A stretch of DNA of 60,313 nt from a virus (lineage: Duplodnaviria > Caudoviricetes): the IMG/VR virus record IMGVR_UViG_3300047476_000372, positions 1 to 60,313 of that record; one strand, written 5' to 3'. A program made the translations under genes and the position numbers. Positions 33,317 to 60,313 of this stretch are shown one piece after another; within the stretch, counting starts at the first letter, position 1; every line of letters starts with the position of its first letter. The notes beneath the pieces are model-generated. The model ran no database searches. It saw nothing but the letters and a program-made list of their open reading frames with translations, and had not been told where the DNA came from.

Positions 33317-35328
33317 TACAAGAACATCATATATATGGAATAACTTATAAGACTCCTGAGGTTCCTGCAAAGTCTAGCATAGACTTATATAAATCTTCTA
33401 AACAGAGATTTACTAGGATTCAGATACCTGAATCTTTCCACGACCTAGAGTTTGATGAAGATGGTTCTGCTGTATATGCCGATGAACACGTAAATTTTAT
33501 CAAGAGAGAGTGGGCTAGAATAAATGATGGCTACTGGTTTTATAATGATGGTAACCCTACGTATATAAATGGGCTGCACTACTTCTACCTTAACTATTGG
33601 ACGCTTGAAGATGGAAACTTTCCTGACTACCGTGATGTAGATAGAAGATATTTTTATTTTCAAGAATACTGCGAAAAGATACCACAATGCTTTGGTGTGA
33701 TAAGGATTAAGAAGCGTCGTGAGGGTGCTACTTCACAGGCTACTTGTTATATCGTATGGAAGGCTATAACACAGAGAAAGTCATTCTGCGGTATCGTATC
33801 CAAGACTGGTAAGGACGCATCTGACGCATTCGTATACATGGTAATGAATGGATATAGGAATCTACCAGTGTTCTTTAAGCCTAGAGCAGAAGATGAAGAG
33901 ACAAAAACTGAGTTAGTATTTAGAAAGAAGAAAGATAAAAGGAAGACTAAGGGCAGAGAGAAGGGTCAGGTATTTGACGATGATATTGGTCTTGAGTCTA
34001 AGATTAGTTTTAAGAATACAGCACTTAACTCTTACGATTCCGGTAGGGTAACTGCTCTACTTATGGACGAGGCTGGTAAGTGGCCAAAGGAAGTACCCGT
34101 AAATCAGTACTGGCCTATCGTAAAGAAGACGATGATGAAGGGTGCAATTAAGGTAGGATTCTGTATCATACCATCTACAGCGAACGATGCCAAGAGTGGT
34201 GGTGAGCCTTATAAGATGCTATTTGAGGGAAGCTCTCAATTCGATGACCCATATACAGCTACTGGTCTGTATAGATATTTCTGTCCTGCATACGATGGAT
34301 ATGAGGGTTTTATAGATGAGTATGGAATGTCTATAATAGATGCGCCAACAGAAAAGCAAAAGGAGTATATTAAGGAACGCTATGGCATGAATATTACGAT
34401 GGGTGCTAAAGATTATCTTCTTTCTCAGAGGGCAATAATTAAAGATAAGAAGGCGCTTAGTGAAGAGATAAGGATGAACCCTTTTACTGAAGAGGAAGCA
34501 TTCATGATTGACCAAAAGAAGTGCTACTTCAACTCTGAGAAAATATACAACCAGATAGACTTTCTAAAAGAAGAAAGGGTAGCGCTTAGAAGGATTAGGT
34601 TATTCTGGAAAAATGAGAGGACTGTTGACTGGGCAGATGACCCTGAAGGTCCTTGGATAGCATATAAGATACCAGATAAATCTGAAGCCAATAAGTTTAT
34701 AGAGGTAGACGGTTCTAGGACTCCGGGCAACTCACACAAGTATGTATCTGGAATTGACCCATTTAAATCATCTGTAATATCTGGAAAGGGCTCTATGGGC
34801 GTATGTTACGTATTTGAGAGGCTAGACCCTTCTGACCCAAATAATACCTGTATGCCTATCGCTGAATACGTAGATAGGCCAAGGATGAAATCTATGTTCC
34901 ACGATGAGATGTTGAAGGGTGCTGTATTCTGGGGATATCGTGCATGTTACGAGAATGACGTTGGTGACGACTTCGTGGATTACTTTTCAAATAAAGGATT
35001 TAGGTCTTACCTTATGAGGACTCCAGAATCTGCTATAGATAGGAATAGGCGTAGGACTGTACACAAGTATGGGGTTACATCTGGAGATGCATTTGCTATG
35101 GCTAGGCAGCTAGATACGTGTATATCCTATATTGAGAATCATTGCGATAAGGTTGTATACATTGACCTGCTTGAAGAGTTATTGCAGTATGACCACGAAA
35201 ACAGAACTCCATACGATAGAAGTGTGGCTTTTATGATTAGCTTATTATCTGGGGTAGCTGTTGAGGTAGCCAAGAAGGAAAAGGAGTATTCGGTGATACC
35301 GATTAAGACTTTCAGCATCAGGCTGTAG
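33313..35328 (+). CDS. terL: Terminase large subunit (crAss-like)
   Basis: Y.YLNY, K.RR.GAT Walker A, DEAGKW Walker B, STAN, P.T.EEAF, GIDP nuclease motif, D...A. Confidence 0.92.
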   Translation: MIQEHHIYGITYKTPEVPAKSSIDLYKSSKQRFTRIQIPESFHDLEFDEDGSAVYADEHVNFIKREWARINDGYWFYNDGNPTYINGLHYFYLNYWTLEDGNFPDYRDVDRRYFYFQEYCEKIPQCFGVIRIKKRREGATSQATCYIVWKAITQRKSFCGIVSKTGKDASDAFVYMVMNGYRNLPVFFKPRAEDEETKTELVFRKKKDKRKTKGREKGQVFDDDIGLESKISFKNTALNSYDSGRVTALLMDEAGKWPKEVPVNQYWPIVKKTMMKGAIKVGFCIIPSTANDAKSGGEPYKMLFEGSSQFDDPYTATGLYRYFCPAYDGYEGFIDEYGMSIIDAPTEKQKEYIKERYGMNITMGAKDYLLSQRAIIKDKKALSEEIRMNPFTEEEAFMIDQKKCYFNSEKIYNQIDFLKEERVALRRIRLFWKNERTVDWADDPEGPWIAYKIPDKSEANKFIEVDGSRTPGNSHKYVSGIDPFKSSVISGKGSMGVCYVFERLDPSDPNNTCMPIAEYVDRPRMKSMFHDEMLKGAVFWGYRACYENDVGDDFVDYFSNKGFRSYLMRTPESAIDRNRRRTVHKYGVTSGDAFAMARQLDTCISYIENHCDKVVYIDLLEELLQYDHENRTPYDRSVAFMISLLSGVAVEVAKKEKEYSVIPIKTFSIRL

Positions 35329-35359: not shown

Positions 35360-37666
35360 ATGGAAAATAAAAATATACTAAACTTCCATCTCTCCAACTC
35401 GAAGTTGAAGAAGGAAGATAAGGAGGGACTAAAGATATCTAGATTTATTGAAAGAGCATTCAATAGCGGATACTTTAATAGAAGAAATAAGAAGTTCGAA
35501 AAGAACAGGATGTTTGCTAGAGGTAGACAGCCTATGTCTGAGTTCTTAGACCTATTAAATGTAGACGGAAAAGAGGCGTTTGTAAACCTAGATATGAAGG
35601 CTCCGGCTATCGCTCCTAAGTTTATGCAGGTAATTATAGGTGGATTTATGAAGAGAAATGAAGTTGCAAAAGCAACTGCTGTAGACCCTGTATCAACAAA
35701 GAGGAAGAAGTATGATAAAGATGAGGCTGAATTCAGAATGAACTTTGGTGACCAAGTTAGACAAATAGAAGAGCAGACTGGAGTTAAATTAATGGCAGAG
35801 GGAAAGTTTACTCCAGAAGATTATGAAGAGTTGGAACTATACTTTGGTATGGAATATCAATTGCCTGAGGAAATACTTTTCGAAAAAGGTATAGACTACG
35901 TTAGCCATATGAATGGTTGGGAGGTAATTAAAAGAAAGATTATAGAGGATTTGATTGAGACTGGTGTTGCAGCAACTAAGGTAAGTGTAGCACAGAATGG
36001 TAAGATAAATATCAGAAGAGTAGTACCAGAAAATCTTATTTATTCTTTCTCAGAATACGATGATTTTAGAGATGTGTCTTTTGTTGGTGAGGTTGTATCT
36101 ATGAAGATTATTGACATCAGAAATAACTACCCAAATCTTGACGAAGCTAAAATGTTCGAGATTGCCAAGAAGTCTAAACAGTTTAATCAGACTGTTAAGT
36201 GGGATGAAAGATATAGATTCTCTTTAGATAGGCCATATGATGATTGGACTGTTGATGTTATAGACTTTGAGATTAAGAGTATTGATACAATGATTTACCA
36301 AGCTAAGATTAATAAGTTTGGAAATCTAATAGTTGAAAGAAAAGAGAAAGAACCTCAAAGACTTGGTGACAATAAAGAAGTAATCAAGAAAGACATGTAC
36401 GTAATTTATAGAGGCGTATATGTTATGGGTACTGATTTAATGTTGGAGTGGGGAATTCTTAAGAACATGATTAAGCCTAATACGGCTAAGGAAATGTCTG
36501 AGGTACACTTCAGTTATTCTCTATATATGTATGAGAATCTTGACCTTATAAACATGGCTCTACCTGAAAGGATGGAGACTTCTATAAGGCAGATGACTTT
36601 GGCTCACCTTAAGATTCAACAGCTTATAGCTAAACTCAGACCTTCTGGTTTGATTATAGATATCGACTCATTGTCTGATATCAGTCTTGGTCAAGGTAGA
36701 AATATAAGCCCACTAGAAATTCAAAAGATATACGACCAAACTGGTAATATATATTATAGAAGGAGAACAGAGGATGGAGACCAGCAAAATGGACTACCAA
36801 TTTCTGAAGCTCCTAATAGTTCTAGTGTTGGACAAATTCAAGAGCTTATCTTGGTTTATAACCACTACCTAGACAGATTACGTGATGAGATTGGTGTAAA
36901 TGAATATAGAGAAGGTGCTTCTGTAAATCCAAAGCTTGGCCTTGGTGTTCAACAGCAGCAGATTGCAGCATCTAACAATGCTACTGATTTTATCTATGAT
37001 TCATTCTTGTCTATCTATCAGCAAACAGCTCTTAAGATTTCTATGTTGCTGTACGATTCAGTATTGTACGGAGGACAGCAGTACAGAGAGTATTTAAATC
37101 CAGAGGATGTAGACGGTAAGGTATTTGATGTTAAAATAAATATCCTTCCAGATGATAAAGAGAGGCAGTTCATTGAAGCTATGATTCAGACAGCACTTTC
37201 TGCTGGTGTTATAGATTTTGAGGATGCGTTTAGAGTTAGAAGCATAAAGAATACTAAGCTTGCTGAGATGTATCTATCTAAGGCTAAGAAGAGAAAGTCT
37301 AAAGAAGATATGGAGAAGGCTCAAGCTAATTCTCAGATGAATGCACAGGTACAACAACAATCTATTCAGGCAAAGGCACAATCAGATATGCAGCTTGAAC
37401 AAATGCAGGCTCAAGGTAAGTTAGCTGTTACTCAGACAGAGATGAAGATGAAGCAGGACTTATCTGAACAACAATTTGTACAAGACATCTTGATGAAGTC
37501 TTATGAGCTAGGTAAACCACTTAGTCCAGAACTACAAGCTGTTGTTGATGCCTATTTCCAAAAGAAGCAAGCTGAACAAATGCAGATGATGCAGCAACAG
37601 GCTATGCAACAGATGGAGCAGGAGCAGATGGCAGAAGAAGGCGATGTTGAAGAAATGCAACAATAA
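35360..37666 (+). CDS. Portal protein (crAss-like)
   Basis: 768 aa after TerL; R.FARG.Q, PKF, Y.QTG, GVN..R.G, SNNAT; Q-rich tail. Confidence 0.85.
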   Translation: MENKNILNFHLSNSKLKKEDKEGLKISRFIERAFNSGYFNRRNKKFEKNRMFARGRQPMSEFLDLLNVDGKEAFVNLDMKAPAIAPKFMQVIIGGFMKRNEVAKATAVDPVSTKRKKYDKDEAEFRMNFGDQVRQIEEQTGVKLMAEGKFTPEDYEELELYFGMEYQLPEEILFEKGIDYVSHMNGWEVIKRKIIEDLIETGVAATKVSVAQNGKINIRRVVPENLIYSFSEYDDFRDVSFVGEVVSMKIIDIRNNYPNLDEAKMFEIAKKSKQFNQTVKWDERYRFSLDRPYDDWTVDVIDFEIKSIDTMIYQAKINKFGNLIVERKEKEPQRLGDNKEVIKKDMYVIYRGVYVMGTDLMLEWGILKNMIKPNTAKEMSEVHFSYSLYMYENLDLINMALPERMETSIRQMTLAHLKIQQLIAKLRPSGLIIDIDSLSDISLGQGRNISPLEIQKIYDQTGNIYYRRRTEDGDQQNGLPISEAPNSSSVGQIQELILVYNHYLDRLRDEIGVNEYREGASVNPKLGLGVQQQQIAASNNATDFIYDSFLSIYQQTALKISMLLYDSVLYGGQQYREYLNPEDVDGKVFDVKINILPDDKERQFIEAMIQTALSAGVIDFEDAFRVRSIKNTKLAEMYLSKAKKRKSKEDMEKAQANSQMNAQVQQQSIQAKAQSDMQLEQMQAQGKLAVTQTEMKMKQDLSEQQFVQDILMKSYELGKPLSPELQAVVDAYFQKKQAEQMQMMQQQAMQQMEQEQMAEEGDVEEMQQ

Positions 37667-46725: not shown

Positions 46726-47391
46726 ATGGCACTACCAGCAATAATGGCCGGACTTAGTATGGCAGCATCAGCTGCTCCACTTTTTTTTGGCGAAAACAAT
46801 ATCTTCAGCGGTAAGGCTAGAAGAGCAAGTAAAGAATTAGAGAGAAACTTCCAGAGGTCTCAACAAATGGGATTACCTTCTGAGATTACTCAGTCTTTGC
46901 AAAACAGATTAGCTCAAGCTAATATGGGATTACCATCTGCGGCTGTAGGATTGTACCAACAGCAAGCAGCTAGAAATCAAGCATCACAGCTTGGAGCATT
47001 AAGAAGTAGAAGGTCTGCTCTTGCTGGTATTGGAGATGTTGCTCAAGCTGGACAAGATGCCGCTCTTAGACTTGCTGGTATGCAGGGACAAGCTATGCAA
47101 GCTAACCAAGAAAGAGCTAATCAGGCCCTTATGCAGGTTGGTGGAATGAAATATCAAGAGGAGCTAAGGAAGCAACAAGAAGCTGCTGACTATTGGGGAA
47201 CTAGAAGAGCAGAAGCAAATGCAGCTGTTAGTAGTGCGTTAACAGGTCTTGGAAGTTCAATGGGTTCTGCATTGATGTCTGGTGCTTTTGGAGGTAGTTT
47301 AGGTAAAAAAGGAAATACATTTACTCCTAAACAAATAAAAGCTGGAAGTCAAGTGGCATCTGGATTAATGCAATCACCGTTATTTTTTTAA
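46726..47391 (+). CDS. Putative ejected/cargo protein (A/Q/G-rich)
   Basis: Composition and position. Confidence 0.6.
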   Translation: MALPAIMAGLSMAASAAPLFFGENNIFSGKARRASKELERNFQRSQQMGLPSEITQSLQNRLAQANMGLPSAAVGLYQQQAARNQASQLGALRSRRSALAGIGDVAQAGQDAALRLAGMQGQAMQANQERANQALMQVGGMKYQEELRKQQEAADYWGTRRAEANAAVSSALTGLGSSMGSALMSGAFGGSLGKKGNTFTPKQIKAGSQVASGLMQSPLFF

Positions 47392-47401
47392 ATAAATATA
47401 A

Positions 47402-48817
47402 ATGGCAACTTATAGACCATCATTTGTAGATGTATCAGGGCTTTCAAGAGGTATCAGTCGTGGACTTGAGATAGCTGCTCAAAGAAAGCAGCAGCAAGAC
47501 CTTATTGCTGAACAGACGACTAATGACTTCTTGAAATCATATCAGCCGGGTAAATTAAGGCAGATGGATATTCCTGACTTTACAAAAGCATATAACCAAT
47601 ACAAGCAAACAGCTCTAATGTATTCACGAATGAATAGAGGTGGTGCTCCATCTGAACAACTAGCTGCTTCTAAGGCACAGCTAGATAATGCACTTAGTGG
47701 ATTAAACGATATATACTCTAGGTCAACACAAGCTGCTAGCTTACAGAAAGAATACGCAGACTATATAAAGACAGCTAGATTAAAAGGATATGATGTACCT
47801 ACTGAAATCAGTGAAATAGTTACATCATTAAATACTAGCCCAATAGCTGGTGTAGATACTTCTAAAATACCTTCAGCATACTCATTCCCTCTAGTTCCAG
47901 CTGAAATAGATTTTGATGGTATAAGCAAAACTCTTGACCTATCAGATGCTAGAGTTAAGGATATAGAGACAGTTAGAGAGAAAGTTCCTGTAAGAAGAGA
48001 TGTAAATGGTAATGTTTTATATGGTGAGCAAGTAACAAAGATGGTTGGTAGAGACCCTCAAACAACTGTTGATATGTTGTCTAGACTTGGAAGGTCTAAT
48101 GCAAGGCTTTCTAACTCTGCTAAAGAGGATTATAGCATACTTGCTGAAGGTATACAGAACAATGCTCCTGAGTCTATTAGAAGATTTAATGAAATTAGGC
48201 AGTACTTCCCTAATGTGACAAGCATGAAGGATGTTACTCCAGAGATGGTATTTGGGCTTACTTTTTACAGAAAGAAGCCACAAGCTACTACCATTGATAG
48301 AGGAGCGGCAGATGATGAATACCAAAGAAGAAAGGATATTATAAGCATTCAAAGACAGGGAGAGAAGGCCGCTGGAACAAAAGCTGGAGAGGTATCAGAA
48401 TCTCACCCATCTGTTATCATTAGGTCTGTTATGGAAGAGATTCCTGCTGTTACTGGAGAAAGAGGTAAGGAGCGTACATTCGCTGGTGTAGACGTTACTA
48501 GGCAATTTGCTGGATTTGACATGAAGGGTGGAGAAAATAAGATGTATCCTATAAAAAATGTAAAGTATATAGCAGGTGGAGAAGGAACTGATATACAACC
48601 ATATTTTGATGTTACCCTACAAGATGAGTCAAACTTCAAATTGCAGCCAAATGCATTTAATACTAGGATTGTAGCGGCTATGCCTGACATAACATTTAAG
48701 TCTGGTGCTGTATCAATACCAAAGGTTAGTAATGTAAAGCCAAAGGCAAAAACACCAGCTAAAACAACTACTCCTTCTAAAGGAAAAGGTGTTGGTTCTT
48801 TAGGATTAGAGTTCTGA
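47402..48817 (+). CDS. Putative ejected/cargo protein
   Basis: Helical 471-aa ORF before the giant protein. Confidence 0.6.
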   Translation: MATYRPSFVDVSGLSRGISRGLEIAAQRKQQQDLIAEQTTNDFLKSYQPGKLRQMDIPDFTKAYNQYKQTALMYSRMNRGGAPSEQLAASKAQLDNALSGLNDIYSRSTQAASLQKEYADYIKTARLKGYDVPTEISEIVTSLNTSPIAGVDTSKIPSAYSFPLVPAEIDFDGISKTLDLSDARVKDIETVREKVPVRRDVNGNVLYGEQVTKMVGRDPQTTVDMLSRLGRSNARLSNSAKEDYSILAEGIQNNAPESIRRFNEIRQYFPNVTSMKDVTPEMVFGLTFYRKKPQATTIDRGAADDEYQRRKDIISIQRQGEKAAGTKAGEVSESHPSVIIRSVMEEIPAVTGERGKERTFAGVDVTRQFAGFDMKGGENKMYPIKNVKYIAGGEGTDIQPYFDVTLQDESNFKLQPNAFNTRIVAAMPDITFKSGAVSIPKVSNVKPKAKTPAKTTTPSKGKGVGSLGLEF

Positions 48818-48860
48818 GTAGGCAAATAATCGTTAAATTTGCTTTACAAATAATCTAATA

Positions 48861-51800
48861 ATGCCAGATAAGGTATCACCATCGAAATTTGCTGCATCTG
48901 TAAAAGCGAAATATCCTGAATATCAGTCATACGATGATATCGAATTGACTAATGCAATAATCAAGAAATTCCCAGAATATAAAGAATACGTAGATTTTGG
49001 TGGTCCTGTGCCTGCTGCTAAACCTAGACCAACAGGAGGACTACCTAGTTTTCAACAACAGGTAGAGTACATGACTCCTCTTGTTTCAGAGGAACAGCCA
49101 AGGCCTTCTAAATATCAGGAGGCTGTTAATAAAGACAAGAGCGAGATTGGTAAGACAGCATCTACTTTTTACAATACCATACTAGGTTCATTTGAAACAT
49201 TAACAAAACTTGCTACAGAATTACCAGCTGCATTTCCTGTAACACCATACCAATTTTCTCCTGTAGATATTGGTGGTGCAGCAGAATCTGCTAGGAAATT
49301 TCAACAGCTACCATTAGAGGAAAGACTAAAGCCAGTAAAAGAATCAAGAAAAGGTATTGAACGTGCTTTTGATGTAGTACGTTCTGGGTATACTACTAGA
49401 GAAGAAGAAGCTGCACTAAAAGGACAATTTGATGTAACAGATGGTATAGGTTTTAAGGATTTTCAAGCATTATTAGCTATGTCAGGTGGTATAGCTACAG
49501 ACATGGCACTAGGTGCTGCTACTGGAGGAGCTACATTTGTTGGCCAAGGAATGCAGTATGCTTTTGAAGATTATGATAATGCAGTTCAAAAGTCTGGATA
49601 TGCTATGGACCCTAAAGCAAGAAACCTATATGGTATTGCTGGTGGTGTAATTAATGGTGTATTAGAAAAATTTGCGGTAGATAAGATAGTTGGAGATGTA
49701 CCTGTATTTAGAGATTTGCAGAGAAAAGTAATTGCAAATGTTTTAAAGAATACAGCTAATGTCACAGGCAAAAGAGCTATAGATGCTATAGAAGAAGCTG
49801 CTGTAGCAGAAGTTAGAAAACTATCTAGTAATCTTAAAAGAGCTGGATATAGAGCATTAGTGGAAGGTGGGACAGAAGCTGCTCAAGCTGCTCTAGAAGA
49901 TGGAATGAAGTTTGCATCAAATGCTGTACAAGGCAATGAGGTATTTAATGAAGAAGAAATTGCTAAAGGTTTTATATCTAATGTAGTAAACTCTGCAGTA
50001 GCTGGAGGTGTATTTGGCCCTATGCTAGGAGCAGGAGCAGATATAACTTTTGGCAAGAATGTAAACACTGAGATACTTACAGATATTGCTAACGCAAAAA
50101 CTACTGAAGATTTAGATGGTATAAGACAAGAGCTTACAAAGACATTTGATGAGAATAACTTCTCTCAAGAAGAGCGTGATATTATCATGAATAATGCCAA
50201 TAGGTATGCACAGATAAAGCAGACTATTCCAGAAGGAACTCCTGCATTATCACAATCTGTTGCAATACCTAAGATTGAGCAGAGAATGAAGCTTGATGAA
50301 GAGATTAATAAAAAGACAGAATATATAAATACTGTTGATGAAGCTGTTAGGGGTTCTGAAGAACAAGAGCTTTCTTTCCTTCAAGATAAGAGAGCATCTT
50401 TGAATGATGAAATTAGAGAAGTAATATCTAATGATGTATTTAATTATACAGAAGAAAATGGTAAGTATTACAAATCATTAGAAGGTGGAGCAAAAGAAGA
50501 AATATCAAAAAATAGATACGATTTAGAACAAATTAAAAGAGGAAACTATGCCACTACAGAAAGCAAAGAGCAAGTCCAAGAAGGACGTCCAGAAGGCGAT
50601 ATCAGCCAACGTCAGGGAGCTCAAGAAATCCAAGACCAAGAGGCCTTTAAATCAGATATTGGCTATCGCTATATCGTCGGCGAAGAAGGGGATGACATCC
50701 CGATAACAGCACTTCTAAACAAGAAGGTTAGAGTTAAGGGACAGCCTGCTATTCTATATCAACAAGGACAAACTATTGAAGCTAGGATTATAGGTACAAA
50801 TCGTATCATAGAAATAGGTAATGTAAATAAGTTAATGAATGAGTTACCTGATGCATACGATATTGAACTAGATGAGGTGCTTGTAACAGAGACTCCACAG
50901 GGATATAGAATTGAAGGTCAGCCACTAAAGAATACTAATGAGAATCCACTAGACGCAATTAGTCTAGACCAGAATGGTAATGTGATGAATGTTGTTCTTA
51001 CAACACCTGCTGGTAAGAGAAGGAAGTTTAGAGGCCAAGTAGCTCAGGACTTAGCATACCAAATACAACTAAAAGAAATACTAAAAGATGAAGAACAATT
51101 TGAAGAGTTCCTTACAAGGGAGCACCAAGCAGAACTCGATGCAGCAGCCAAAATCGCAGCCCAGCAAGAACCTGAGCAAGTTCAAGAGCCTGTCCAAGAA
51201 CAGGCAGTTGGAGTTGATGAAACAATTTCTCCAAGGCAAGTCGAACCAACCTATGGCAGGGTCACAGACAGAGATGCAACAACAAGCGTAAGGCTTCCTA
51301 ATCCAAATAGGATTCAAAGAAAGGTATTGAATGATGCTAGAAAAGTTGCAACTGCATTAGAGATATTTATACCTAGAACTACTGGACAAGCAGTACAGAT
51401 AAGTTTGCATGATGCTAACTCATTTGAGGAGGCTGTAGTTGCAGCAGGTGGAACACAACAAGACGCTACGTCCAGAGGGTTCTACATGGCAACAGATGGT
51501 AGCATACATCTTAACATGGATAACTTAGAAACAGATACTGTTCTTCACGAAGGATTTCATCCAGTACTTGACTTTGTAGAGGCTACAAACCCTGCAAAGA
51601 TTAATGAGTTCTATAATAAGTTAGCTTCAATACCGGGTGCTGAGCCAATTATAGCTAAGGCAAAAGAACTATATGGAGAAGGGGATGCACACAAGAAGGA
51701 AGCTATAACAGACTTTGTTGCTGCTGTAGCTGATGGTAGAGTAGTTGTAAATCCATCTAACTTCCAAAAGATTAAGGCATTTGTTTTAAATCTTGTTAAG

Positions 51801-54800
51801 AGTCTTGGAATAGGTAGTGGTCAGAAAATACTTACCGTAAAAGATGAGACTGGATTAGTAGAATTATCTAAATATATAACAGAACAGTTTACGTCTGAGT
51901 TTGGACTTATAACTACAGTAGATGTAGCTAATATTATTTCTGAAAAAGAAGCAAATAGAGAGATTGCTGAGGTAGAAAAAGATTTAATAGGTGAAAAGCA
52001 ATACGATTCTTCTGAAGGTCAAGACGTTGATAAAACCATTCCTGAAAAAGGTAGTGGTAGGGGTCCTCAGTTTAGCAGGTCTACACTAGAGAACGCTAAG
52101 AATAATTTAAAGAAGGTATCTGATTTAGCTGGTACTAAGATTGCTAGAGTTGTGTTTTATGACATGACTAGAGTTGGTAAGCTAGATATTAAAAATATAA
52201 AGACAGGTTATACTCCTAATATTGAAGGTAAGGGTGGGCCTTTATACTCATACATGGATAACTCTGTACAGAACAAATCTGTTTTAGCATTTGTGAGTAT
52301 AAACCAAGCTATACAGTCTTTACAGAGACAACAGATGTTCCCAGAAGCTGTACATGCTATTGCATCACAGAATCCAATGACTGCACACTTGGGTAATAAA
52401 TCTACACTTCAAGCTTTGTTTGGTGAAGGTATAGGTATATTCCAGAATGCAGCTAAGACTAAAGCACAAGAAAAAGAGATTGTAAACATATTAGTATCTG
52501 AGATAGATAGGATGTCTAAGATGCCTCCTAACATAGAGGCTAGCAAATCTGTAAATAAGATATTGCAGAAAGTAAATCTATCTTCTATTAAAACTATAAA
52601 TGACTTTAGAGACAATATACTTCTTGGAGAAGGTGACTCATTTGGTAAGAGAGGTTCTATCTTGACTGAATTGCTACAGAATAAACAATCAAAGGTAACA
52701 GCAGCTACAAGAAACTCACATAAGATACTTCACTATAAGTATGGTATACCAACAATAGAAGATATTGCAAAAGGAAACAATCAGAGTGAATTGTCAAATA
52801 TAGAGCTTGGTGATGTTGTAAAATTAGTAAGACCAAGTGTAGAGCCTGTGATATACACTACAGACCCTGCAATGTTTGAAAGATATAGCAATAACCCTAC
52901 TCCAGAGATGAAGAAGGGTGGCATTAGAATAGAATTGCTTCCTGAAGAATCAGCACATGAATCATATCCATTTGTTCTAGTTGGCGAAAACGTAGCATTA
53001 CTAGAAGAGTATATAGGTGCACAACAGCTATATCAAAACTTTAAGGATATAAAGAAGAGTGCTACATTCTTTAAGGTAGGTAGAATGAAGAAAGAGTCTG
53101 AAGCTGGTAGAGTTCCTGTATCTGTAATAACAGAGCAGAAAGGTCCACAGTTTCAGAGACAATATGCTGATGTAGTTAATGGATTCTATTCACCTATAGT
53201 TAAGAAGGTTAATGAATTCAAACAACCTAATGCATCTGCAACTAAGTGGAAAGAAATAGTTGGATTCAAGACAGATGAAGCTGTATACTCAGGGTTGGCA
53301 GACTGGTTAAATTCAAAGAAGCCTAACGAACAGGTTTCTAAACAAGATGTCTTGAAGTTTATGAAAGACAATAGACTTCAGATTATTGAGAAGACAAGAG
53401 GTGGAGACTATAAAGTCTTCGATATGAGAACAGATAGAGAAGTAGATTCATTTGAAACACTAGATGAGGCTCAAGATTTTGTAGCATCTGCTAGAGAGGA
53501 TGGAGATAGATATGGAATAGAAGAACCTATAGGTGGATTTATAAGTAGTATATATGAAGGCTATCAATTGCCGGGTGGTAAGGACTATAAAGAAAGACTC
53601 GTAATGCTTCCGGGTAAAGATATTTTTAAGGGAAATCATTTCAAAAATGATAGCAATATACTTGTACATCTTAGGATGAACACCCGCACCGATGCCGATG
53701 GCAAGAAAGTATTATTCTTAGAAGAGGTTCAGTCAGATTGGGGGCAACAGGGTAAGAGAGAAGAGTTTAAAGAAATTCCTAAAGCTCCATTTGTAACTGA
53801 TACTAATGCTTGGGTAAAGCTTGGAATGAAGATTGCACTTAAAGAAGCTGTTAAGGAAGGTGCAGATAGAATTGCTTGGACTACAGGACAACAGCAAAAT
53901 GAAAGATATGACCTTAGAAAACAGGTAGATGAGATACAGTACAATGACAATGGAGACGGAACTTACAGCTATTCAGCAGTTAAAAATAATTCTGAAATAG
54001 GTTCTAAACAAAATGTAAGTATAAAGGTTGTAGAAGAGGACCTTGGAAAAGATATCGCAGATAAGATACTTTCTTCAGAAGGAAGTAAAATACCTTTTTC
54101 TGATGCTGCTGGAGCAAAGTCTTTAAAAGGTGAAGATTTAAAGTTTGGCGGTAAAGGAATGAATGCATTCTATGGCGATGCACAGAATGTAGGTATTGTT
54201 GGTAAGGTAGCTAAAGCTGTTGTCAAAGAACTTACTGGTAAGGAAGGCGTCATTATAGAAAGTAAAATATCTTCTCCGGTTAATCAAGATGTTATAGATA
54301 GATATAATAGGGCTAGACAATACGGGAATGTTCCAGAGGCTTTAGCTAAAGAATATGAGCAAGCTACTGGTTTACAAGGAACACAGCCAGCTATAGAATT
54401 AACTCCTGAGCTCAAACAATCTGTTAAGGCAGGCATGCCACAGTTCCAGAAAGCTCCAACAAAAGCCATATCTAAGAAGCCTATAGTAGGAGTTGTACAG
54501 AAAACATTTATAGACCAATTTAGATATGGTGTATTAGGTAAGGAGGGAGTAAAACTAAAAGAGGCACAAGCAGGTGAACTGTCAGCAGAACTAGCTAAAG
54601 CTGAGAGGGTTACTAAAAATGCAATACAATTAATAGCTAAGTATAAGAACTCTGTATCTAAGACAGATGTAGAAGACTTCATGACAGGTAATGAAGTAGA
54701 AGGTAATCTACCTGCAGATTTAGCAGCTGCATTAACAGAGGCTAGAGAGCATGTAGATAACATGACTGAAAGATTAATACACTTAGGTGTTATTGATGAC

Positions 54801-57080
54801 CAAGAGACTATAGATTACTACAGAGAGAATAAGGGTAAGTACTTGGTACGTTCTTACGAATCTATAAACTATAAAGATACTAAGGTATCTAAGTTTCTCT
54901 ACGGAGAAGGCTTGGATGTAGATAATGTAACTAAGAAACTAAAGAATGTAGATAAATCTGTTGTAGATGCAGCACTTAAGTTCCTTGCTGATAGGGCTAT
55001 GGAACAGAACTCTTCTTTATCTGAAGAGGATGCTATGAGACAGGCTAGAATTGAGGCTAATGGACTTCTATCAAATGCTGAAGAGTATGTCATGCAGAAA
55101 GGCCTTACTGGCAGCACTAATATAGCTTCTTTAGGAAAGAGACTATCTGATAAAGAGTTTGCTCCAGAACTTAGGGCATTGATGGGTGAATACACCGACC
55201 CTATATATAACTACTATGCATCTATATTTAAGATAGCAAGTCTTACTTCTGCTAGACAATACCTAAACTCTATGAAGGAGTATGGTATGGGTAAATTTAT
55301 GTTCCCATACAAGACAGAAGAAGCTACAGTGCAGATAGCTGGAGAGGGTTCTAGGACCCTTGAGCCACTGAATGGTCTGTATACATTCCCAGAGATTTAT
55401 GAGGCACTAAAGAAGGCAGACAAGGATGTACAGCCAATAATTATCCAGACACTAGGTAGGATACGTAAGTTCAAGACTGTATATAACCCTGCTACACATA
55501 TTAAGAATATAGTAGGTAATACAGGATTTGCTATGTCTAACGGTCACTGGAACTACATGAAAGAGGCTTACAAGTACATGAGAGCTTCTGTCACAGGGGA
55601 GACCGATGAGGATATCAATAGAGTTATGGACACCCTAAACAGATATGGTGTTTTAAACAATACTATTGGTATAGGAGAACTAAAGCAATATTTTAACAGA
55701 CATGAGAATGTAGATGACTTCTTGACTGAGATATATCAAGCTGGTGGTAAGAATAAGGCTATGTTCGGAAAAGTAAAGAATGCTGTTGCTCAAGTACCTA
55801 AGTTCATGGAGAAGGCGTACCAGATAGAGGATGACCTATTCAAGATACTTGGATTTGTGAATGAATCTAACAGGTATGCTAAAGCAATGTATAATGCAGA
55901 GTATAATAAGCTTACTGATGCTCAAAGGTCAGAGGTAGATAAGGTAGTTGCTGAGATTGTAAAGGATACATATCCTACATTCACTCGTGTTCCTAAGATT
56001 GTAAAAACAATTAGTAAGGGATTGTTTATGGGTAACTTCTTGTCATTCCCTGTAGAGTCGGTAAGGACTCAATATAACTCTATGGCACTTGCTTTGAAAG
56101 AGATTAATAGCGGGAATCCAAGGCTTAAAAATGTCGGTCTAACTAGACTTGCAGGAGCTGCTGCATATAATGCTATATTCTCTGGAATGGTTTACTACTC
56201 TTACTCTTTAGCAGCTGCTGGACTTACTGGTATGTTAGGAGTTCTAAATGGAGACGATGAGGATGAAACAGAAAATGCAAAGGCTATATCAAGATACGTC
56301 CCTCAGTGGAATATGAAGACAGATAAATACATTGAAATGTTTTCCAATGGTAAACTTATATATTATGACATTGGTTCTCTAGATTCATATAGCTACCAGA
56401 AAAGAGTTTGGAATGCGTTTTGGTCTAACATAAATAATAAAGAAGGGTTTGATAAGGCTATATCTGAGTCTATTGCAGAAGCAGTTGACCCATGGCTACA
56501 GAGAGACTTTGCGATAGAAAACTTTAATAAGTTGTGGAATAATCCAAACAACTCTATATATAATCCAAAGGATAATGCATGGAGAAAGTTGCAGGATATG
56601 TCTATGTTTGTTGCAAAACAAATGGGTCCGGGTGCTCTTGGAGCATCTATAAAGATAGCTGATAGCTACACTAAGGGAGACTACGACAAAGCTATAAACG
56701 AAGGTTTTTCTCAAATTGTCAGGAGATATGATATAGACCTTGAGAAGCAATTTAAAACATTTATATATGTAGATAATACTAATAAGAATAGTGATATTGG
56801 ATTTAGGGATGCACTTAGGAATACAGAAGATATATATAAAAGAGCTAAAGATGCTGGAGCTAAGGGTATTGAACTAGATGATGCATATAGGGAAGCTGTA
56901 GATAAGTACAAAGAGCAAGTTAAGATTATTAGAGAGTACTACAATTCAGCTACTAGAGCGGGTGTACCAGCCAAGAAGCTTAATGAAATTATGGATAAAT
57001 CAGGGTTTAGTCCAGCTGTTAAGAAGGGTGTAACTGAAGGTAAGTTTAACTTCCCTGACAAGAGTTACATTAAGAAGTAG
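48861..57080 (+). CDS. Giant polyvalent virion/ejection protein (2739 aa) with zincin HEGFH and an EEVQSDW domain
   Basis: N-terminal FA..VK.KYPEY..D.EL motif, HEGFH at 51546, H.R...R...G.K.L.LEEVQSDW; no RNAP DxDGD motif seen. Confidence 0.75.
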   Translation: MPDKVSPSKFAASVKAKYPEYQSYDDIELTNAIIKKFPEYKEYVDFGGPVPAAKPRPTGGLPSFQQQVEYMTPLVSEEQPRPSKYQEAVNKDKSEIGKTASTFYNTILGSFETLTKLATELPAAFPVTPYQFSPVDIGGAAESARKFQQLPLEERLKPVKESRKGIERAFDVVRSGYTTREEEAALKGQFDVTDGIGFKDFQALLAMSGGIATDMALGAATGGATFVGQGMQYAFEDYDNAVQKSGYAMDPKARNLYGIAGGVINGVLEKFAVDKIVGDVPVFRDLQRKVIANVLKNTANVTGKRAIDAIEEAAVAEVRKLSSNLKRAGYRALVEGGTEAAQAALEDGMKFASNAVQGNEVFNEEEIAKGFISNVVNSAVAGGVFGPMLGAGADITFGKNVNTEILTDIANAKTTEDLDGIRQELTKTFDENNFSQEERDIIMNNANRYAQIKQTIPEGTPALSQSVAIPKIEQRMKLDEEINKKTEYINTVDEAVRGSEEQELSFLQDKRASLNDEIREVISNDVFNYTEENGKYYKSLEGGAKEEISKNRYDLEQIKRGNYATTESKEQVQEGRPEGDISQRQGAQEIQDQEAFKSDIGYRYIVGEEGDDIPITALLNKKVRVKGQPAILYQQGQTIEARIIGTNRIIEIGNVNKLMNELPDAYDIELDEVLVTETPQGYRIEGQPLKNTNENPLDAISLDQNGNVMNVVLTTPAGKRRKFRGQVAQDLAYQIQLKEILKDEEQFEEFLTREHQAELDAAAKIAAQQEPEQVQEPVQEQAVGVDETISPRQVEPTYGRVTDRDATTSVRLPNPNRIQRKVLNDARKVATALEIFIPRTTGQAVQISLHDANSFEEAVVAAGGTQQDATSRGFYMATDGSIHLNMDNLETDTVLHEGFHPVLDFVEATNPAKINEFYNKLASIPGAEPIIAKAKELYGEGDAHKKEAITDFVAAVADGRVVVNPSNFQKIKAFVLNLVKSLGIGSGQKILTVKDETGLVELSKYITEQFTSEFGLITTVDVANIISEKEANREIAEVEKDLIGEKQYDSSEGQDVDKTIPEKGSGRGPQFSRSTLENAKNNLKKVSDLAGTKIARVVFYDMTRVGKLDIKNIKTGYTPNIEGKGGPLYSYMDNSVQNKSVLAFVSINQAIQSLQRQQMFPEAVHAIASQNPMTAHLGNKSTLQALFGEGIGIFQNAAKTKAQEKEIVNILVSEIDRMSKMPPNIEASKSVNKILQKVNLSSIKTINDFRDNILLGEGDSFGKRGSILTELLQNKQSKVTAATRNSHKILHYKYGIPTIEDIAKGNNQSELSNIELGDVVKLVRPSVEPVIYTTDPAMFERYSNNPTPEMKKGGIRIELLPEESAHESYPFVLVGENVALLEEYIGAQQLYQNFKDIKKSATFFKVGRMKKESEAGRVPVSVITEQKGPQFQRQYADVVNGFYSPIVKKVNEFKQPNASATKWKEIVGFKTDEAVYSGLADWLNSKKPNEQVSKQDVLKFMKDNRLQIIEKTRGGDYKVFDMRTDREVDSFETLDEAQDFVASAREDGDRYGIEEPIGGFISSIYEGYQLPGGKDYKERLVMLPGKDIFKGNHFKNDSNILVHLRMNTRTDADGKKVLFLEEVQSDWGQQGKREEFKEIPKAPFVTDTNAWVKLGMKIALKEAVKEGADRIAWTTGQQQNERYDLRKQVDEIQYNDNGDGTYSYSAVKNNSEIGSKQNVSIKVVEEDLGKDIADKILSSEGSKIPFSDAAGAKSLKGEDLKFGGKGMNAFYGDAQNVGIVGKVAKAVVKELTGKEGVIIESKISSPVNQDVIDRYNRARQYGNVPEALAKEYEQATGLQGTQPAIELTPELKQSVKAGMPQFQKAPTKAISKKPIVGVVQKTFIDQFRYGVLGKEGVKLKEAQAGELSAELAKAERVTKNAIQLIAKYKNSVSKTDVEDFMTGNEVEGNLPADLAAALTEAREHVDNMTERLIHLGVIDDQETIDYYRENKGKYLVRSYESINYKDTKVSKFLYGEGLDVDNVTKKLKNVDKSVVDAALKFLADRAMEQNSSLSEEDAMRQARIEANGLLSNAEEYVMQKGLTGSTNIASLGKRLSDKEFAPELRALMGEYTDPIYNYYASIFKIASLTSARQYLNSMKEYGMGKFMFPYKTEEATVQIAGEGSRTLEPLNGLYTFPEIYEALKKADKDVQPIIIQTLGRIRKFKTVYNPATHIKNIVGNTGFAMSNGHWNYMKEAYKYMRASVTGETDEDINRVMDTLNRYGVLNNTIGIGELKQYFNRHENVDDFLTEIYQAGGKNKAMFGKVKNAVAQVPKFMEKAYQIEDDLFKILGFVNESNRYAKAMYNAEYNKLTDAQRSEVDKVVAEIVKDTYPTFTRVPKIVKTISKGLFMGNFLSFPVESVRTQYNSMALALKEINSGNPRLKNVGLTRLAGAAAYNAIFSGMVYYSYSLAAAGLTGMLGVLNGDDEDETENAKAISRYVPQWNMKTDKYIEMFSNGKLIYYDIGSLDSYSYQKRVWNAFWSNINNKEGFDKAISESIAEAVDPWLQRDFAIENFNKLWNNPNNSIYNPKDNAWRKLQDMSMFVAKQMGPGALGASIKIADSYTKGDYDKAINEGFSQIVRRYDIDLEKQFKTFIYVDNTNKNSDIGFRDALRNTEDIYKRAKDAGAKGIELDDAYREAVDKYKEQVKIIREYYNSATRAGVPAKKLNEIMDKSGFSPAVKKGVTEGKFNFPDKSYIKK
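50548..50706 (+). CDS. Nested +1-frame small basic protein (52 aa, MPLQKAKSKSKKDVQKAISANVRELKK...ILAIAISSA)
   Basis: Resembles the widespread MPLKKG.S...IS.NI.E......P..QA.AIA.S.A phage protein pattern; A-rich/GAGGA leader; host-frame codons atypical here. Confidence 0.75.
   Translation: MPLQKAKSKSKKDVQKAISANVRELKKSKTKRPLNQILAIAISSAKKGMTSR
51088..51291 (+). CDS. Candidate nested +1-frame protein (67 aa)
   Basis: A-rich leader, amphipathic core, host frame low-complexity with C-ending codons. Confidence 0.5.
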   Translation: MKNNLKSSLQGSTKQNSMQQPKSQPSKNLSKFKSLSKNRQLELMKQFLQGKSNQPMAGSQTEMQQQA

Positions 57081-57115
57081 GGCTATATTTCTTATATTTG
57101 CATAAATAATATAAT

Positions 57116-57646
57116 ATGCCATTCATAACAGCCTTTACGGTTACACAGACTGGTGACTGTACTAAGTTTACAGTAAATGACACCTCTAACTACGCTACAG
57201 AAGGTACTGGCACTTTTACTGCTAGAAAATTAACTATACAGAAATCTGACGGTACATATCTTACTGTAGGCGCAACAGTTTATAATGAATACGTGTGGCC
57301 ATTTGCCAGTGGTAACTCTATAGAGTTTACTGCTATTGACAAAGACTATTCATACGAAGTCACTCTTGCTCATACGTCAAGCGCACCTCAACCGGGTTCT
57401 ACCTATACAAAAACTAATGCTGCTGTTCTAGTTTGTTATACCATGAGTGGTTTCTACACTTTTGCGTATAACATGGTAATTAACCCTTCTTTAGAAAAGA
57501 ATTACAAATATGTAAAAGATGTCATGAGGTTGTGGATAGAGAAAGAATCTGCGCAGAAAGCTGCAATAGATAATGATTTTCAGGCATCACAGGCATCACT
57601 TGATAGAGCTAAGAATATTGTAGATAACATTACATCAGGTTACTAA
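57116..57646 (+). CDS. Tail hub / fibre-attachment protein (putative)
   Basis: Beta-rich N-terminus plus helical C-terminus; precedes the tail fibre; own -7 box. Confidence 0.6.
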   Translation: MPFITAFTVTQTGDCTKFTVNDTSNYATEGTGTFTARKLTIQKSDGTYLTVGATVYNEYVWPFASGNSIEFTAIDKDYSYEVTLAHTSSAPQPGSTYTKTNAAVLVCYTMSGFYTFAYNMVINPSLEKNYKYVKDVMRLWIEKESAQKAAIDNDFQASQASLDRAKNIVDNITSGY

Positions 57647-57647
57647 T

Positions 57648-60313
57648 ATGGCATACTCACCATTACAGATATCGTCTGCCTTACTTAAGTCAGAAAAGAC
57701 TATTTATAAAATAGGTCAGATAGCATATGATAATATGTTTTCAGAGGACGATGAGACATTGGACTATGAAAGAGACATTATATTCATATATAAAGAGTCT
57801 GTTAACTATGCAAAAAACGTATATATAGGGGAACAGAAGCTTGATAAGCTAGTAGAGAAATTATCTGCTAAGATATATGCCTATGACTATGGAGAGTTAA
57901 ATCCAGTATATTCAGATGCTGTAATAACAGCTTCTGCAATAGTAGGAACAGCATATTTAAATGATTTGAGTGATGTAACTATATCAAATCTACTTGACAA
58001 TCAAATACTTAGATATAATGCAGCTACTGGACAATGGATTAACGTAGGTCCGGGAAATACTGTTAGAAATAGCCAATCTTTTGTAGCTACTGCAGGACAA
58101 ACTTCTTTTACTACTGCCTATCCATTTGATATACAGTTATTAGATGTATATATCAATGGTGTGAAAATTAACTCTAGCTCTTATTCAACAGTTGGAGAAT
58201 ATACCATAAATCTAGTTGATGGGTGCATAGCTGGTGACATAGTTGATGTGGTAATATTTGACCCTGAGACATCAATACTACCTCCTGTAAATAACCTAAA
58301 TGATTTAAACGATGTAAATATTGGGCCTTTAGTCAATAAGCAGGGTCTTTATTATAATTCTGTTAGTGGTTTATGGGAGAATGGATTAGTTTTTGTGCCT
58401 TATACAGGAGCTCTTGGAAATGTAGATTTAGGAGAGTATGAAATACGTGCTGGTCAGTTTACTCTTGATACATCTCCAACAGGTGTAGCTACCGTTGGTA
58501 CTACTAGGTGGAATGATACAATAGGTAGTAGCGAGACAACCCTAAAAGGTGGTAGTGTTATTCTAAAGAATGGTGTGGACTTGGTGGCGAGAATAGTAAA
58601 TAAAGTTTCTCCTAACCAAACATTAACTAAAGCTGCTTATCAAGCGGTTAGAGTTAGTGGCGCACAAGGTCAGAGATTAGCGGTAGCTTTAGCACAAGCA
58701 AATAACGACAATAATAGTGCAGATACGATTGGACTTGTTACCGAGACGATAGCAACCAACCAAGAAGGGTTTATAATGACCGTTGGTTCGCTTGAAGGTA
58801 TAAATACAACTGGTTCTCTACAAGGCGAGACTTGGGTGGATGGTGATGTAATATATTTAAGTCCTACTACGGCTGGTGCTTTGACTAACGTCAAACCTAT
58901 TGCTCCTCAACATATTATTGTAATTGGTTATGTTGAGTACGCTCACGCAAACAATGGTAAGTTGTATGTTAAGGTGATGAACGGATGGGAGTTAGGGGAA
59001 TTGCATGACGTAGATACTACTGGTGCAACTGCTGGTCAGGTGCTTAAATACAACGGCACTATCTGGACACCGAGTGGGGATGCTGGGATAACGGGAACGG
59101 GTACAAGTGGTCAAGTTGCCTATTTCACTGGCTCGACTACACAAGCTGGTAGTAATAATTTGTTTTGGGATAATGCGAATGTTAGATTAGGTATAGGAAG
59201 AAATAATCCGCAAAATTCTCTTCATATTAGCAGTACTGGTGGTGGTGCAATATATTTAGAAGATAGTGATGCTACTTCTACTTTTAATACAACTGAAATT
59301 TCTAATAACGCTGGAAACTTTAATCTAACAACAAGAAGTTCTGCTGGTGCATTTGTTTCATCTGACTATCAAATAGTAAAAGATACAATTAGTTCTCAAT
59401 ATCACAGGTGGTTTACTGGTGGAACTGAAAGAGTTAGATTATTTAACACTGGCAACTTCGGTATCGGCACTGGTGCGACTGATTCGGGGCAGAGGTTACA
59501 AGTTATTGGTACTTCATCAATTAGCGGACAAGCTGATTTTGGAAATGCTATTTTAGTAGCTGGGCCTATTGGAGCACACCAAACAAGCAAAGGTGTTATT
59601 GAATACAACGCTAATAAAGTTGCTATACGTGCTTATGGTGCAACTGCTGGAACTGGTATTATAGCATTTAACACTGGTGGAGGTGGAGGTAGTGCAGATA
59701 CGGAGAGAGTAAGGATAATGGAGAATGGTAGTGTTTTAGTTGGTATTGCTGGTATTACGAATGTGGACTTGATGTTAAGGAGAAATTTAACAGCTACTAG
59801 TGGTACTGCATATTCAGTATATGTTAACTCAACAATACAATCAGATGTAACCTCAAATGCTTCTCTTTTTGCAACAAATGTTTCAACACAAGCTGCTGCA
59901 TTTACCCTAACTAATCTATTTCATTACAATGCTAGCCCAACTACAATAGGTGCTGGTAGTGCAATAACAAACGAATATGGTTTCTACGGAAACTTATCAG
60001 CCGCTACTGGTCGTTGGAATCTCTATATGAACGGCACTGCCAACAACTATATGGCGGGGTCGTTGGGGATTGGGAGTACGAGTTTAACGGGTATTAATCT
60101 AAGAGTATCAAAAAATATTACAGGAGCAACTGCTTCTTTTAATGTTCTTGCTTCTGGTGCTGTTCAATCAGATGTAACTTCTGCCTATGGGTTTTATAAT
60201 GCATCATCAACAGCGGCAGCTTCTTTTACTTTAAATGCCTACTTTCATTTCTTTGCCGAACAAGGTACATTTGGTGTAGGTTCAACGGTTTCAAGTCAAT
60301 ATGGATTTTATGT
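57648..60313 (+). CDS. Tail fibre/spike, N-terminal part (MAYSPLQ...), runs off the window end
   Basis: ATG at 57648, open to the end (absent from the ORF track because it has no stop). In frame with base 1 via the terminal overlap; ~2109 aa if joined. LNDLSDV and ELHDV fibre motifs. Confidence 0.88.
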   Translation, partial: MAYSPLQISSALLKSEKTIYKIGQIAYDNMFSEDDETLDYERDIIFIYKESVNYAKNVYIGEQKLDKLVEKLSAKIYAYDYGELNPVYSDAVITASAIVGTAYLNDLSDVTISNLLDNQILRYNAATGQWINVGPGNTVRNSQSFVATAGQTSFTTAYPFDIQLLDVYINGVKINSSSYSTVGEYTINLVDGCIAGDIVDVVIFDPETSILPPVNNLNDLNDVNIGPLVNKQGLYYNSVSGLWENGLVFVPYTGALGNVDLGEYEIRAGQFTLDTSPTGVATVGTTRWNDTIGSSETTLKGGSVILKNGVDLVARIVNKVSPNQTLTKAAYQAVRVSGAQGQRLAVALAQANNDNNSADTIGLVTETIATNQEGFIMTVGSLEGINTTGSLQGETWVDGDVIYLSPTTAGALTNVKPIAPQHIIVIGYVEYAHANNGKLYVKVMNGWELGELHDVDTTGATAGQVLKYNGTIWTPSGDAGITGTGTSGQVAYFTGSTTQAGSNNLFWDNANVRLGIGRNNPQNSLHISSTGGGAIYLEDSDATSTFNTTEISNNAGNFNLTTRSSAGAFVSSDYQIVKDTISSQYHRWFTGGTERVRLFNTGNFGIGTGATDSGQRLQVIGTSSISGQADFGNAILVAGPIGAHQTSKGVIEYNANKVAIRAYGATAGTGIIAFNTGGGGGSADTERVRIMENGSVLVGIAGITNVDLMLRRNLTATSGTAYSVYVNSTIQSDVTSNASLFATNVSTQAAAFTLTNLFHYNASPTTIGAGSAITNEYGFYGNLSAATGRWNLYMNGTANNYMAGSLGIGSTSLTGINLRVSKNITGATASFNVLASGAVQSDVTSAYGFYNASSTAAASFTLNAYFHFFAEQGTFGVGSTVSSQYGFY
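60090..60313 (+). repeat. Terminal overlap, copy 2 (matches 1-224)
   Basis: Direct comparison of the two ends. Confidence 0.95.

Follow-up and report, generated by a model that had tools for sequence, protein, structure and literature searches.

Can one stretch of phage DNA encode a small protein in one reading frame while a giant protein reads through it in another? The question is raised by the IMG/VR record IMGVR_UViG_3300047476_000372, a Caudoviricetes sequence of 60,313 nucleotides that was analysed over its whole length (the window), in which a complete open reading frame (ORF) of 52 codons lies wholly inside the gene for a 2739-amino-acid (aa) protein. The small ORF runs from an ATG at 50548 to a TAA at 50704–50706, and the offset of its start from that of the giant gene (50548 − 48861 = 1687 = 3 × 562 + 1) places it in the +1 frame. 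The arrangement is a same-strand internal overlap, that is, a complete ORF within a longer one in another frame. An earlier annotation, here called the original prediction, took this ORF for a small basic phage protein hidden in the giant gene; its peptide string is identical to the translation obtained here, and the bases upstream of the nested ATG read ...aaattaaaagaggaaact, as it stated. On the comparisons below, bases 50548–50706 are very likely a dual-coding cassette: a real gene for a basic, two-helix protein of 52 aa that is read in the other frame as a linker of the giant protein.

The nested frame and its relatives

The nested peptide is basic (15 K+R, 2 D+E), and its likeness to a known phage family, as originally claimed, is now substantiated by profile comparisons. 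Against phrog_2423, a family annotated as of "unknown function", the window peptide scores 21.2 bits (E = 4.6e-4), its residues 1–50 aligning with profile positions 1–42 of 52; the 11 peptides of alignment A2 all reach E ≤ 0.01, the best of them 4.8e-6. In fact, hhalign aligned a profile of 22 nested copies with one of 12 free-standing copies at a probability of 99.6% (E = 9.8e-24). Residues M1, P2, L3, N21, E24, L25, Q36, A39, I40 and A41 are invariant in 11 aligned sequences, and among 73 sequences the conservation of L3, N21, L25, R32, Q36, A39, I40 and A41 is 90% or higher. An "AIA motif" is presumably the Pfam descriptor of DUF6496-type proteins.

The family is normally a stand-alone one, as had been proposed. 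A profile search of 1.84 billion representatives returned 219 cluster representatives at E ≤ 1e-3, and 123 of the 150 listed are no longer than 100 aa, most of them aligning from residue 1. Searches of cultured phages by tblastn gave 23 and 172 records with different family members as queries, one record with P0033, and no match with either the window peptide or P0007; blastn of 49800–51500 against the same phages found no match. Free-standing copies occur in the phages PB1, TC6, phiEap-2 and RSB1. NCBIfam held no family for the six members tested, and a literature search found no paper naming "DUF6496".

With 73 sequences, AlphaFold2 predicted the nested peptide as a helical hairpin (pLDDT 87.6; helices 11–27 and 34–46). 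A homodimer prediction scored 0.10, with a mark of 0.42, and is evidence neither way. In the ESM Atlas, the peptide falls among viral "hypothetical protein" clusters, one of which carries DUF6496 on 16% of its members.

The nested layout recurs widely among relatives. Eight loci came from a first scan of viral contigs: seven carried the homologous ORF, intact, in the +1 frame of an ORF of 2271–3030 aa, and only L008 was free-standing. The giant proteins of L001–L007 are 72, 51, 40, 46, 20, 21 and 26% identical to that of the window, and the nested peptides of the first-scan relatives are 90–54% identical to the window peptide. A broader scan yielded 115 relatives, of which the best 80 loci were kept (eight of them on the contigs of L001–L007 and L018); here the small gene was nested in a giant ORF at 56 loci and free-standing at 24. 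The relative frame is constant throughout the nested copies, the host frame always being the peptide frame minus 1, and the host ORFs measure 760–3364 aa as far as the 6-kb flanks reach. Neither of the outcomes that the original prediction had named as fatal to it, a lack of homology to stand-alone proteins and stop codons in this frame of close relatives, was found: phrog_2423 and the free-standing phage copies match, and 56 of 80 loci carry the ORF intact and nested. Among 5′-complete relatives of the giant protein's C-domain, 55 of 61 loci are without the small gene in the DNA examined, and no remnant of it was seen in the +1 frame of L021, L022, L027, L029, L031, L039, L040, L043 or L050.

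One relative, L128 (4116–6386), has an enclosing ORF of just 756 aa with the small gene nested 632 codons in. The host ORF stops 197 nt past the nested stop and is followed by separate genes of 165 and 948 aa, and this locus is possibly an intermediate between split and giant layouts.

Constraint on the two reading frames

Selection was compared over the 1326 pairs in an alignment of 52 nested copies distinct in DNA sequence, with L116 excluded despite having the ATG. Differences at peptide codon positions 1, 2 and 3 numbered 23070, 15732 and 33632. The check on both frames that had originally been proposed came out in favour of the small one, with a ratio of nonsynonymous to synonymous differences (pN/pS) of 0.43 in the peptide frame and 1.63 in the host frame (52 copies). 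Mean aa identity is 0.62 in the peptide frame and 0.38 in the host frame, and in 1325 of 1326 pairs the former shows the higher conservation, although such pairwise counts are not independent events, the copies being related. A control within the giant gene itself, taken over the window and L001–L004, points the same way: host codon positions 1, 2 and 3 take 49, 26 and 25% of the changes in the overlap, and 30, 23 and 47% in the rest of the gene.

The host frame bears a different kind of constraint. It is open across the cassette in all 56 nested loci. When the peptide was resampled synonymously with the phage's own codon usage (20,000 trials), the host frame stayed open in 0.0001 of trials for the window copy and in 0.0000–0.0103 for the eight of eight copies tested. 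T occurs at only 0–4 peptide third positions per nested copy and at 10–19 in most free-standing copies (about 50–60 codons); the 58–60 counted in L137 and L139–L141 belong to frames that continue well past the printed 70 residues. GC content at peptide third positions (GC3) is 0.45–0.88 in nested and 0.18–0.53 in free-standing copies, and 0.69 in the window copy versus 0.25 for its host gene. In the window, GC in 100-nt windows reaches 0.46–0.50 over the nested ORF versus 0.26 just upstream and 0.28 just downstream. This GC island exists because G or C at a peptide third position makes the host frame read E, Q or G and not K or a stop; the unusual host-frame codons remarked upon originally (gtc, ggc, atc, cgc) are visible over the nested ORF. 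Comparison of the copies shows selection keeping both frames, the peptide frame apparently for its aa sequence, and the host frame apparently for openness (T avoided at peptide third positions) and for a non-basic composition (G/C there).

How the giant protein would read these bases is suggested by its structure model. AlphaFold2 of giant residues 440–760 (seven sequences) gave a mean pLDDT of 72.8, with folded parts on both sides of a sole segment below 50, model residues 123–172, which are giant residues 562–611. Across the nested ORF, the host frame reads 54 aa with 13 D+E, 7 Q, 6 G and 5 K+R. In the near relatives L104, L105 and L114, the small gene is free-standing between proteins of 1383–1447 and 1206–1267 aa in the genomic slot of the giant gene, and the 179-aa and 364-aa proteins that follow match the 176-aa and 888-aa proteins of the window. 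The 1383-aa protein of L105 is colinear with giant residues 48–778 (38% identity) on both sides of the cassette and has 14 residues in place of the overlapped segment. In distant nested loci, the flanking host modules differ and the overlapped block is the only alignable part. Neighbours of the free-standing L008 copy showed nothing convincing against the giant protein (best E = 0.12), and TC6_017 showed no similarity to it. As modelled, the giant protein would read the cassette as a dispensable, disordered, acidic linker between two folded modules. The linker role claimed originally is borne out by the low pLDDT of this part alone in the model, the weak conservation of the host frame and its absence from the colinear homologue.

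Table 1. Features of the nested cassette and its host gene in the window
Feature	Position	Strand	Basis
Nested gene, predicted 52-aa basic protein (phrog_2423/DUF6496-like)	50548–50706	+	ATG to TAA, +1 frame of giant gene
Host gene, 2739-aa modular giant protein, predicted structural module	48861–57080	+	ORF list, phrog_22602 match, gene context
Host-frame reading of overlap, giant residues 563–616, putative acidic/polar disordered linker	50547–50708	+	Composition, structure model, L105 comparison, open-frame test
A-rich leader, putative translation initiation region of nested gene	50523–50547	+	Composition, folding energy, conservation
TAnnTTTG-type element TAAATTTG, candidate promoter of mRNA carrying both frames	48834–48841	+	20 nt before giant start

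Expression, objections and alternative readings

The nested start is ATG in 52 of 52 copies, and the bases before it are distinctive. The leader of the window copy has 0.56 A and 0.16 G, with a 50-nt fold of −0.8 kcal/mol; across the 52 copies, the 25 nt before the ATG average 0.57 A and 0.10 G, with A at −3 in 43, at −2 in 44 and at −13 in 47. A 50-nt fold centred at −10 averages −0.84 kcal/mol over the nested copies; other ATGs of these neighbourhoods, taken as controls (n = 2080), average −6.39, and 23 window gene starts −4.30. Conservation extends from about −20 to −1 and is about 0 bits directly past the stop codon.

Shine–Dalgarno (SD)-like motifs occur at only 2 of 44 window starts. TAnnTTTG, which we take to be a Bacteroidota-like promoter element, occurs 12–30 nt before many window gene starts (for example, at 48834, 57093, 37671, 35344, 29069, 29558, 30191 and 6408), and its count over the whole window is mildly above that of shuffles (80 vs. 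64 ± 8). On the + strand, the only matches between 48834 and the nested stop are at 48834 and 49532, the latter about 1 kb upstream of the nested ATG, and there is none between 49540 and 51399. A scan of the window for sigma-70 promoters and terminators was not above shuffles. These elements and the rarity of SD motifs would amount to a Bacteroidota-like expression style. Baez et al. 2019 (PMC6847099) describe Bacteroidetes as lacking SD sequences, with low mRNA structure and A at −3 tuning initiation.

Ribosomes would start on the small gene independently, at the internal AUG at 50548 on the late mRNA of the giant gene. The A-rich, G-poor, unstructured leader, as used by SD-ignoring hosts, would support such initiation, and the leader features, the few SD motifs and the lack of TAnnTTTG at 49540–51399 together point to it. 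The phage or a near-identical one is present in the sample of a freshwater metatranscriptome run (X1), where patchy contigs are spread across the late genes within 47000–58000 and 14 of 15 aligned contigs are at least 99% identical; as contigs in an RNA library, these data are informative neither on transcription of the small gene nor on its ends.

A number of observations weigh against the dual-coding reading or parts of it. The PHROG E-value of the window peptide is modest (4.6e-4), and the peptide does not match Pfam PF20106 (DUF6496) even at E ≤ 10. With a gathering score of 24 bits, only two of the nested homologues tested pass (L005 with 25.0 and L006 with 25.5), L007 (19.0) and the free-standing L008 (13.3) falling below, and DUF6496 membership of the window copy would be transitive, via nested homologues. 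Searches of fold databases were uninformative, which would leave function to gene neighbourhood alone: a PDB sequence search with a 73-row profile returned designed helical repeat proteins only, Foldseek found nothing in the PDB at E ≤ 0.001, and in BFVD it found only unnamed family members at E > 0.5. Of the 56 host ORFs, 23 give no match to either of the profiles made from the window's giant protein, that of its N-module or that of its C-domain. All nested copies lie on uncultured metagenomic contigs, the phage collection having no match to the window DNA or peptide, and the copies behind the pairwise counts are related. As for expression, the SD-like AGAGGA before the window's nested ATG is not conserved in relatives, and SD-like motifs are scarce in any case. 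Host assignment by a search of genome contigs gave no match with A2; with A5, it gave five distant matches (23–32%) in metagenome-assembled genomes of other phyla (Gammaproteobacteria, SAR86, Oceanospirillales and Verrucomicrobiales), none of which names the host of this phage. This leaves Bacteroidota-type initiation to sequence features.

Other explanations of the locus can be set against the same evidence. It is conceivable that ribosomes reach the small frame solely by a programmed +1 frameshift, giving an N-module with a C-terminal DUF6496 domain. The domain does occur in in-frame fusions (at the C-ends of P0020, P0022, P0023, P0024 and P0027 and at the N-end of the AB1 protease), and an A-rich leader can be slippery. 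This route is nonetheless quite improbable, since six loci (L095, L128, L133, L134, L150 and L152) have a stop just one codon ahead of the ATG, and the open run before the ATG is 1–25 codons in all copies. Moreover, no conserved shift site was seen in the aligned copies, the leader resembles an initiation region in its features, and ATG-CCA (Met-Pro) is invariant in 52 of 52 copies, every one of which begins Met-Pro-Leu as the free-standing genes do. It is very improbable that the giant ORF is not read through in vivo and that the locus amounts to two genes with the small gene between them, the open host frame being functionless. The split layouts of L104, L105 and L114, where the small gene stands free between two large genes, the several genes of L102 and the end of the L128 host ORF 197 nt past the nested stop would fit such an arrangement, but all 56 nested loci keep the host frame open despite a resampling P ≤ 0.01 per copy, T is nearly absent from peptide third positions, the window has neither a start context nor a promoter-like element downstream of the cassette, and the folded modules on both sides are colinear with a single L105 protein.

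There is barely a chance that the small ORF is only a relic in decay, or a frame open by accident, that is no longer expressed and is conserved on account of the host protein or of a nucleic acid feature such as RNA structure or a recombination site. Changes concentrate at peptide third positions, which are host first positions, the opposite of what constraint on the host protein would give, and where copies differ in length, the peptide frame is preserved. Every copy retains the start and the stop, conservation does not extend beyond the stop codon, and the peptide fold is predicted with confidence; the start region is the least structured within ±300 nt, so a conserved RNA fold there is unlikely. 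What speaks for a relic is that expression of the small protein is so far a prediction from sequence, and that low-complexity linkers can hold open alternative frames, such as the 67-aa ORF at 51088–51291. On balance, a dual-coding cassette with a real small gene is the preferred reading.

Origin, precedents and possible roles

A phylogenetic criterion set out in an overprinting review (PMC8227390) assigns the widespread gene as the ancestral frame. By that criterion, the small gene would be the older frame and the giant gene's reading the newer, because the family is widespread and the host-frame segment occurs only where the cassette is nested; the criterion does not indicate a de novo origin of the nested frame by overprinting of the enclosing gene. 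Such a de novo overprint was considered as a candidate and is disfavoured by the widespread, mostly free-standing family, by the colinear homologue without the segment and by the free-standing, if weakly resolved, outgroup copies. Of the original proposal that an ancestral gene was engulfed, the greater age of the small gene holds by this criterion, but engulfment is not established: the L105 comparison resembles the clean gain or loss of a segment within a linker between modules, and not the joining of two flanking genes.

The gain and loss history is resolved by neither of two trees. A C-domain tree built by a quick method requires at least three layout changes, with L073 excluded and with L005 and L006 on very long branches and probably misaligned. 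A peptide tree (62 columns) needs seven changes, of which well-supported branches force only one, and its outgroup copies are free-standing and weakly resolved. The route could have been insertion into a linker, fusion of flanking genes or module recombination, once or several times.

The cassette, which comprises the leader (about 20 nt) and the ORF and ends exactly at the stop codon, sits in linkers of giant proteins with differing flanking modules. A bolder and rather doubtful possibility is that leader and gene form a portable dual-coding module, moved or shuffled by recombination among the linkers of mosaic giant virion proteins because its alternative frame is tolerated as a harmless flexible linker, with the small protein functionally tied to the giant one. 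The small protein could be, for example, a co-packaged DNA-binding partner or an assembly factor of the capsid interior, its dose set by internal initiation on the shared late mRNA. If this were true, giant-protein linkers would be safe harbours for older small genes, and the usual direction of overprinting would be reversed.

Overlapping phage genes are already known as a kind. In the lambda Rz/Rz1 and T7 18.5/18.7 spanins, a small gene is nested in the +1 frame of another, and both embedded and separated layouts are known. The window resembles them in having a complete small gene nested on the same strand in the +1 frame, from a family with embedded and separate layouts. Unlike the spanins, the nested peptide has no lipobox or signal sequence and is not in a lysis cassette, and the enclosing gene encodes a 2739-aa virion-module protein that would use the shared DNA only as a linker. 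The phiX174 overlaps (E within D, B within A) are similar as internal same-strand overlaps with asymmetric constraint on the frames.

In the overprinting cases covered in the review (PMC8227390), the nested or restricted frame is taken as de novo; here, unlike those cases, the nested gene would be ancestral and the enclosing linker new. That linker frame lies two bases 3′ (+2) of the ancestral one, and the same source links +2-shifted new frames to higher disorder. A literature search on nested or overlapping phage genes found no report of this arrangement (supplementary files were outside its scope). What is unusual here is an old, widespread nested gene overprinted by a giant gene as a linker, in a layout that is stable across about 50 diverged genomes.

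Comparison with the family's known members is also instructive. The free-standing proteins of PB1 (gp20), TC6 (TC6_020), phiEap-2 (ABY59_0200024) and RSB1 (ORF47) share the MPL start and the N..EL and Q..AIA motifs, and like the window peptide they are short (44–68 aa), basic and encoded in late or structural regions. Free-standing phrog_2423 genes stand between other genes and have ordinary codon usage, whereas the window copy is wholly inside another reading frame. The domain is also joined to larger phage proteins, in Acinetobacter phage AB1 (L179:3501–3614) as the N-terminal 38 residues, in frame, of a "head maturation protease" of 457 aa. A fusion of the same kind lies under a NUDIX-domain protein of Cronobacter phage A24. 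Such fusions are in-frame and give one polypeptide; in the window, the overlap is out of frame and would give two different products. The domain likewise forms the C-end of proteins of 135–205 aa (P0020, P0022, P0023, P0024 and P0027), which have unrelated N-parts and a conserved junction.

The function of the family might be sought in the phage head. Free-standing copies come after "head morphogenesis" genes in PB1 and phiEap-2, and the TC6 copy comes after the endolysin, at the end of the late block. Because of these neighbours, the AB1 fusion, the link to a giant virion-module protein and the charge of the peptide, a tentative suggestion, plausible but short of an even chance, is that the small product binds nucleic acids, belongs to the head interior or to head assembly, and is expressed together with the giant protein. 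A literature search on PB1 virion proteomics found no virion evidence for the family (supplementary files again lying outside its scope).

The giant protein itself is predicted to be a virion-module protein. In a profile library scan, residues 1981–2423 matched phrog_22602 ("virion structural protein", E = 7.7e-23), and the gene lies downstream of the terminase (33313–35328), the portal (35360–37666) and structural genes. A presence in the virion is predicted from this match and from the position in the structural block.

Several consequences follow if the dual-coding reading is right. Gene callers are not designed to report wholly internal genes, and the family is probably under-counted in phages with a nested copy. 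The original statement that such callers miss the nested ORF does not hold throughout, since two near-identical peptides, P0003 and P0004, are recorded as called proteins. The approximately 50 diverged nested copies, with free-standing copies as controls, make up a natural data set on two readings that share one sequence, with T avoided and G/C enriched at the shared positions as its signature. Finally, the links to giant virion-module proteins, head-morphogenesis genes and a prohead protease would be the first testable lead for the function of the family.

Some minor features of the giant gene are also of note. A perfect 10-nt inverted repeat (50515–50524/50798–50807) brackets the cassette; it is not retained in L002–L004 and is probably a matter of chance. 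A second +1-frame ORF (51088–51291, 67 aa), which served as a negative control, lies in another GC-rich, low-complexity linker. Only L001, the closest relative, shares its open frame with the window; a single stop interrupts it near the end of the aligned part in L003, several do so in L002, L004, L005 and L007, and it shows no sign of conservation. Farther along, at about 51546, the giant protein carries an HExxH-type motif (HEGFH, residues ~896–900), and a similar HEG(A/F)HP motif lies closely downstream of the nested cassette in L110, L112 and L113.

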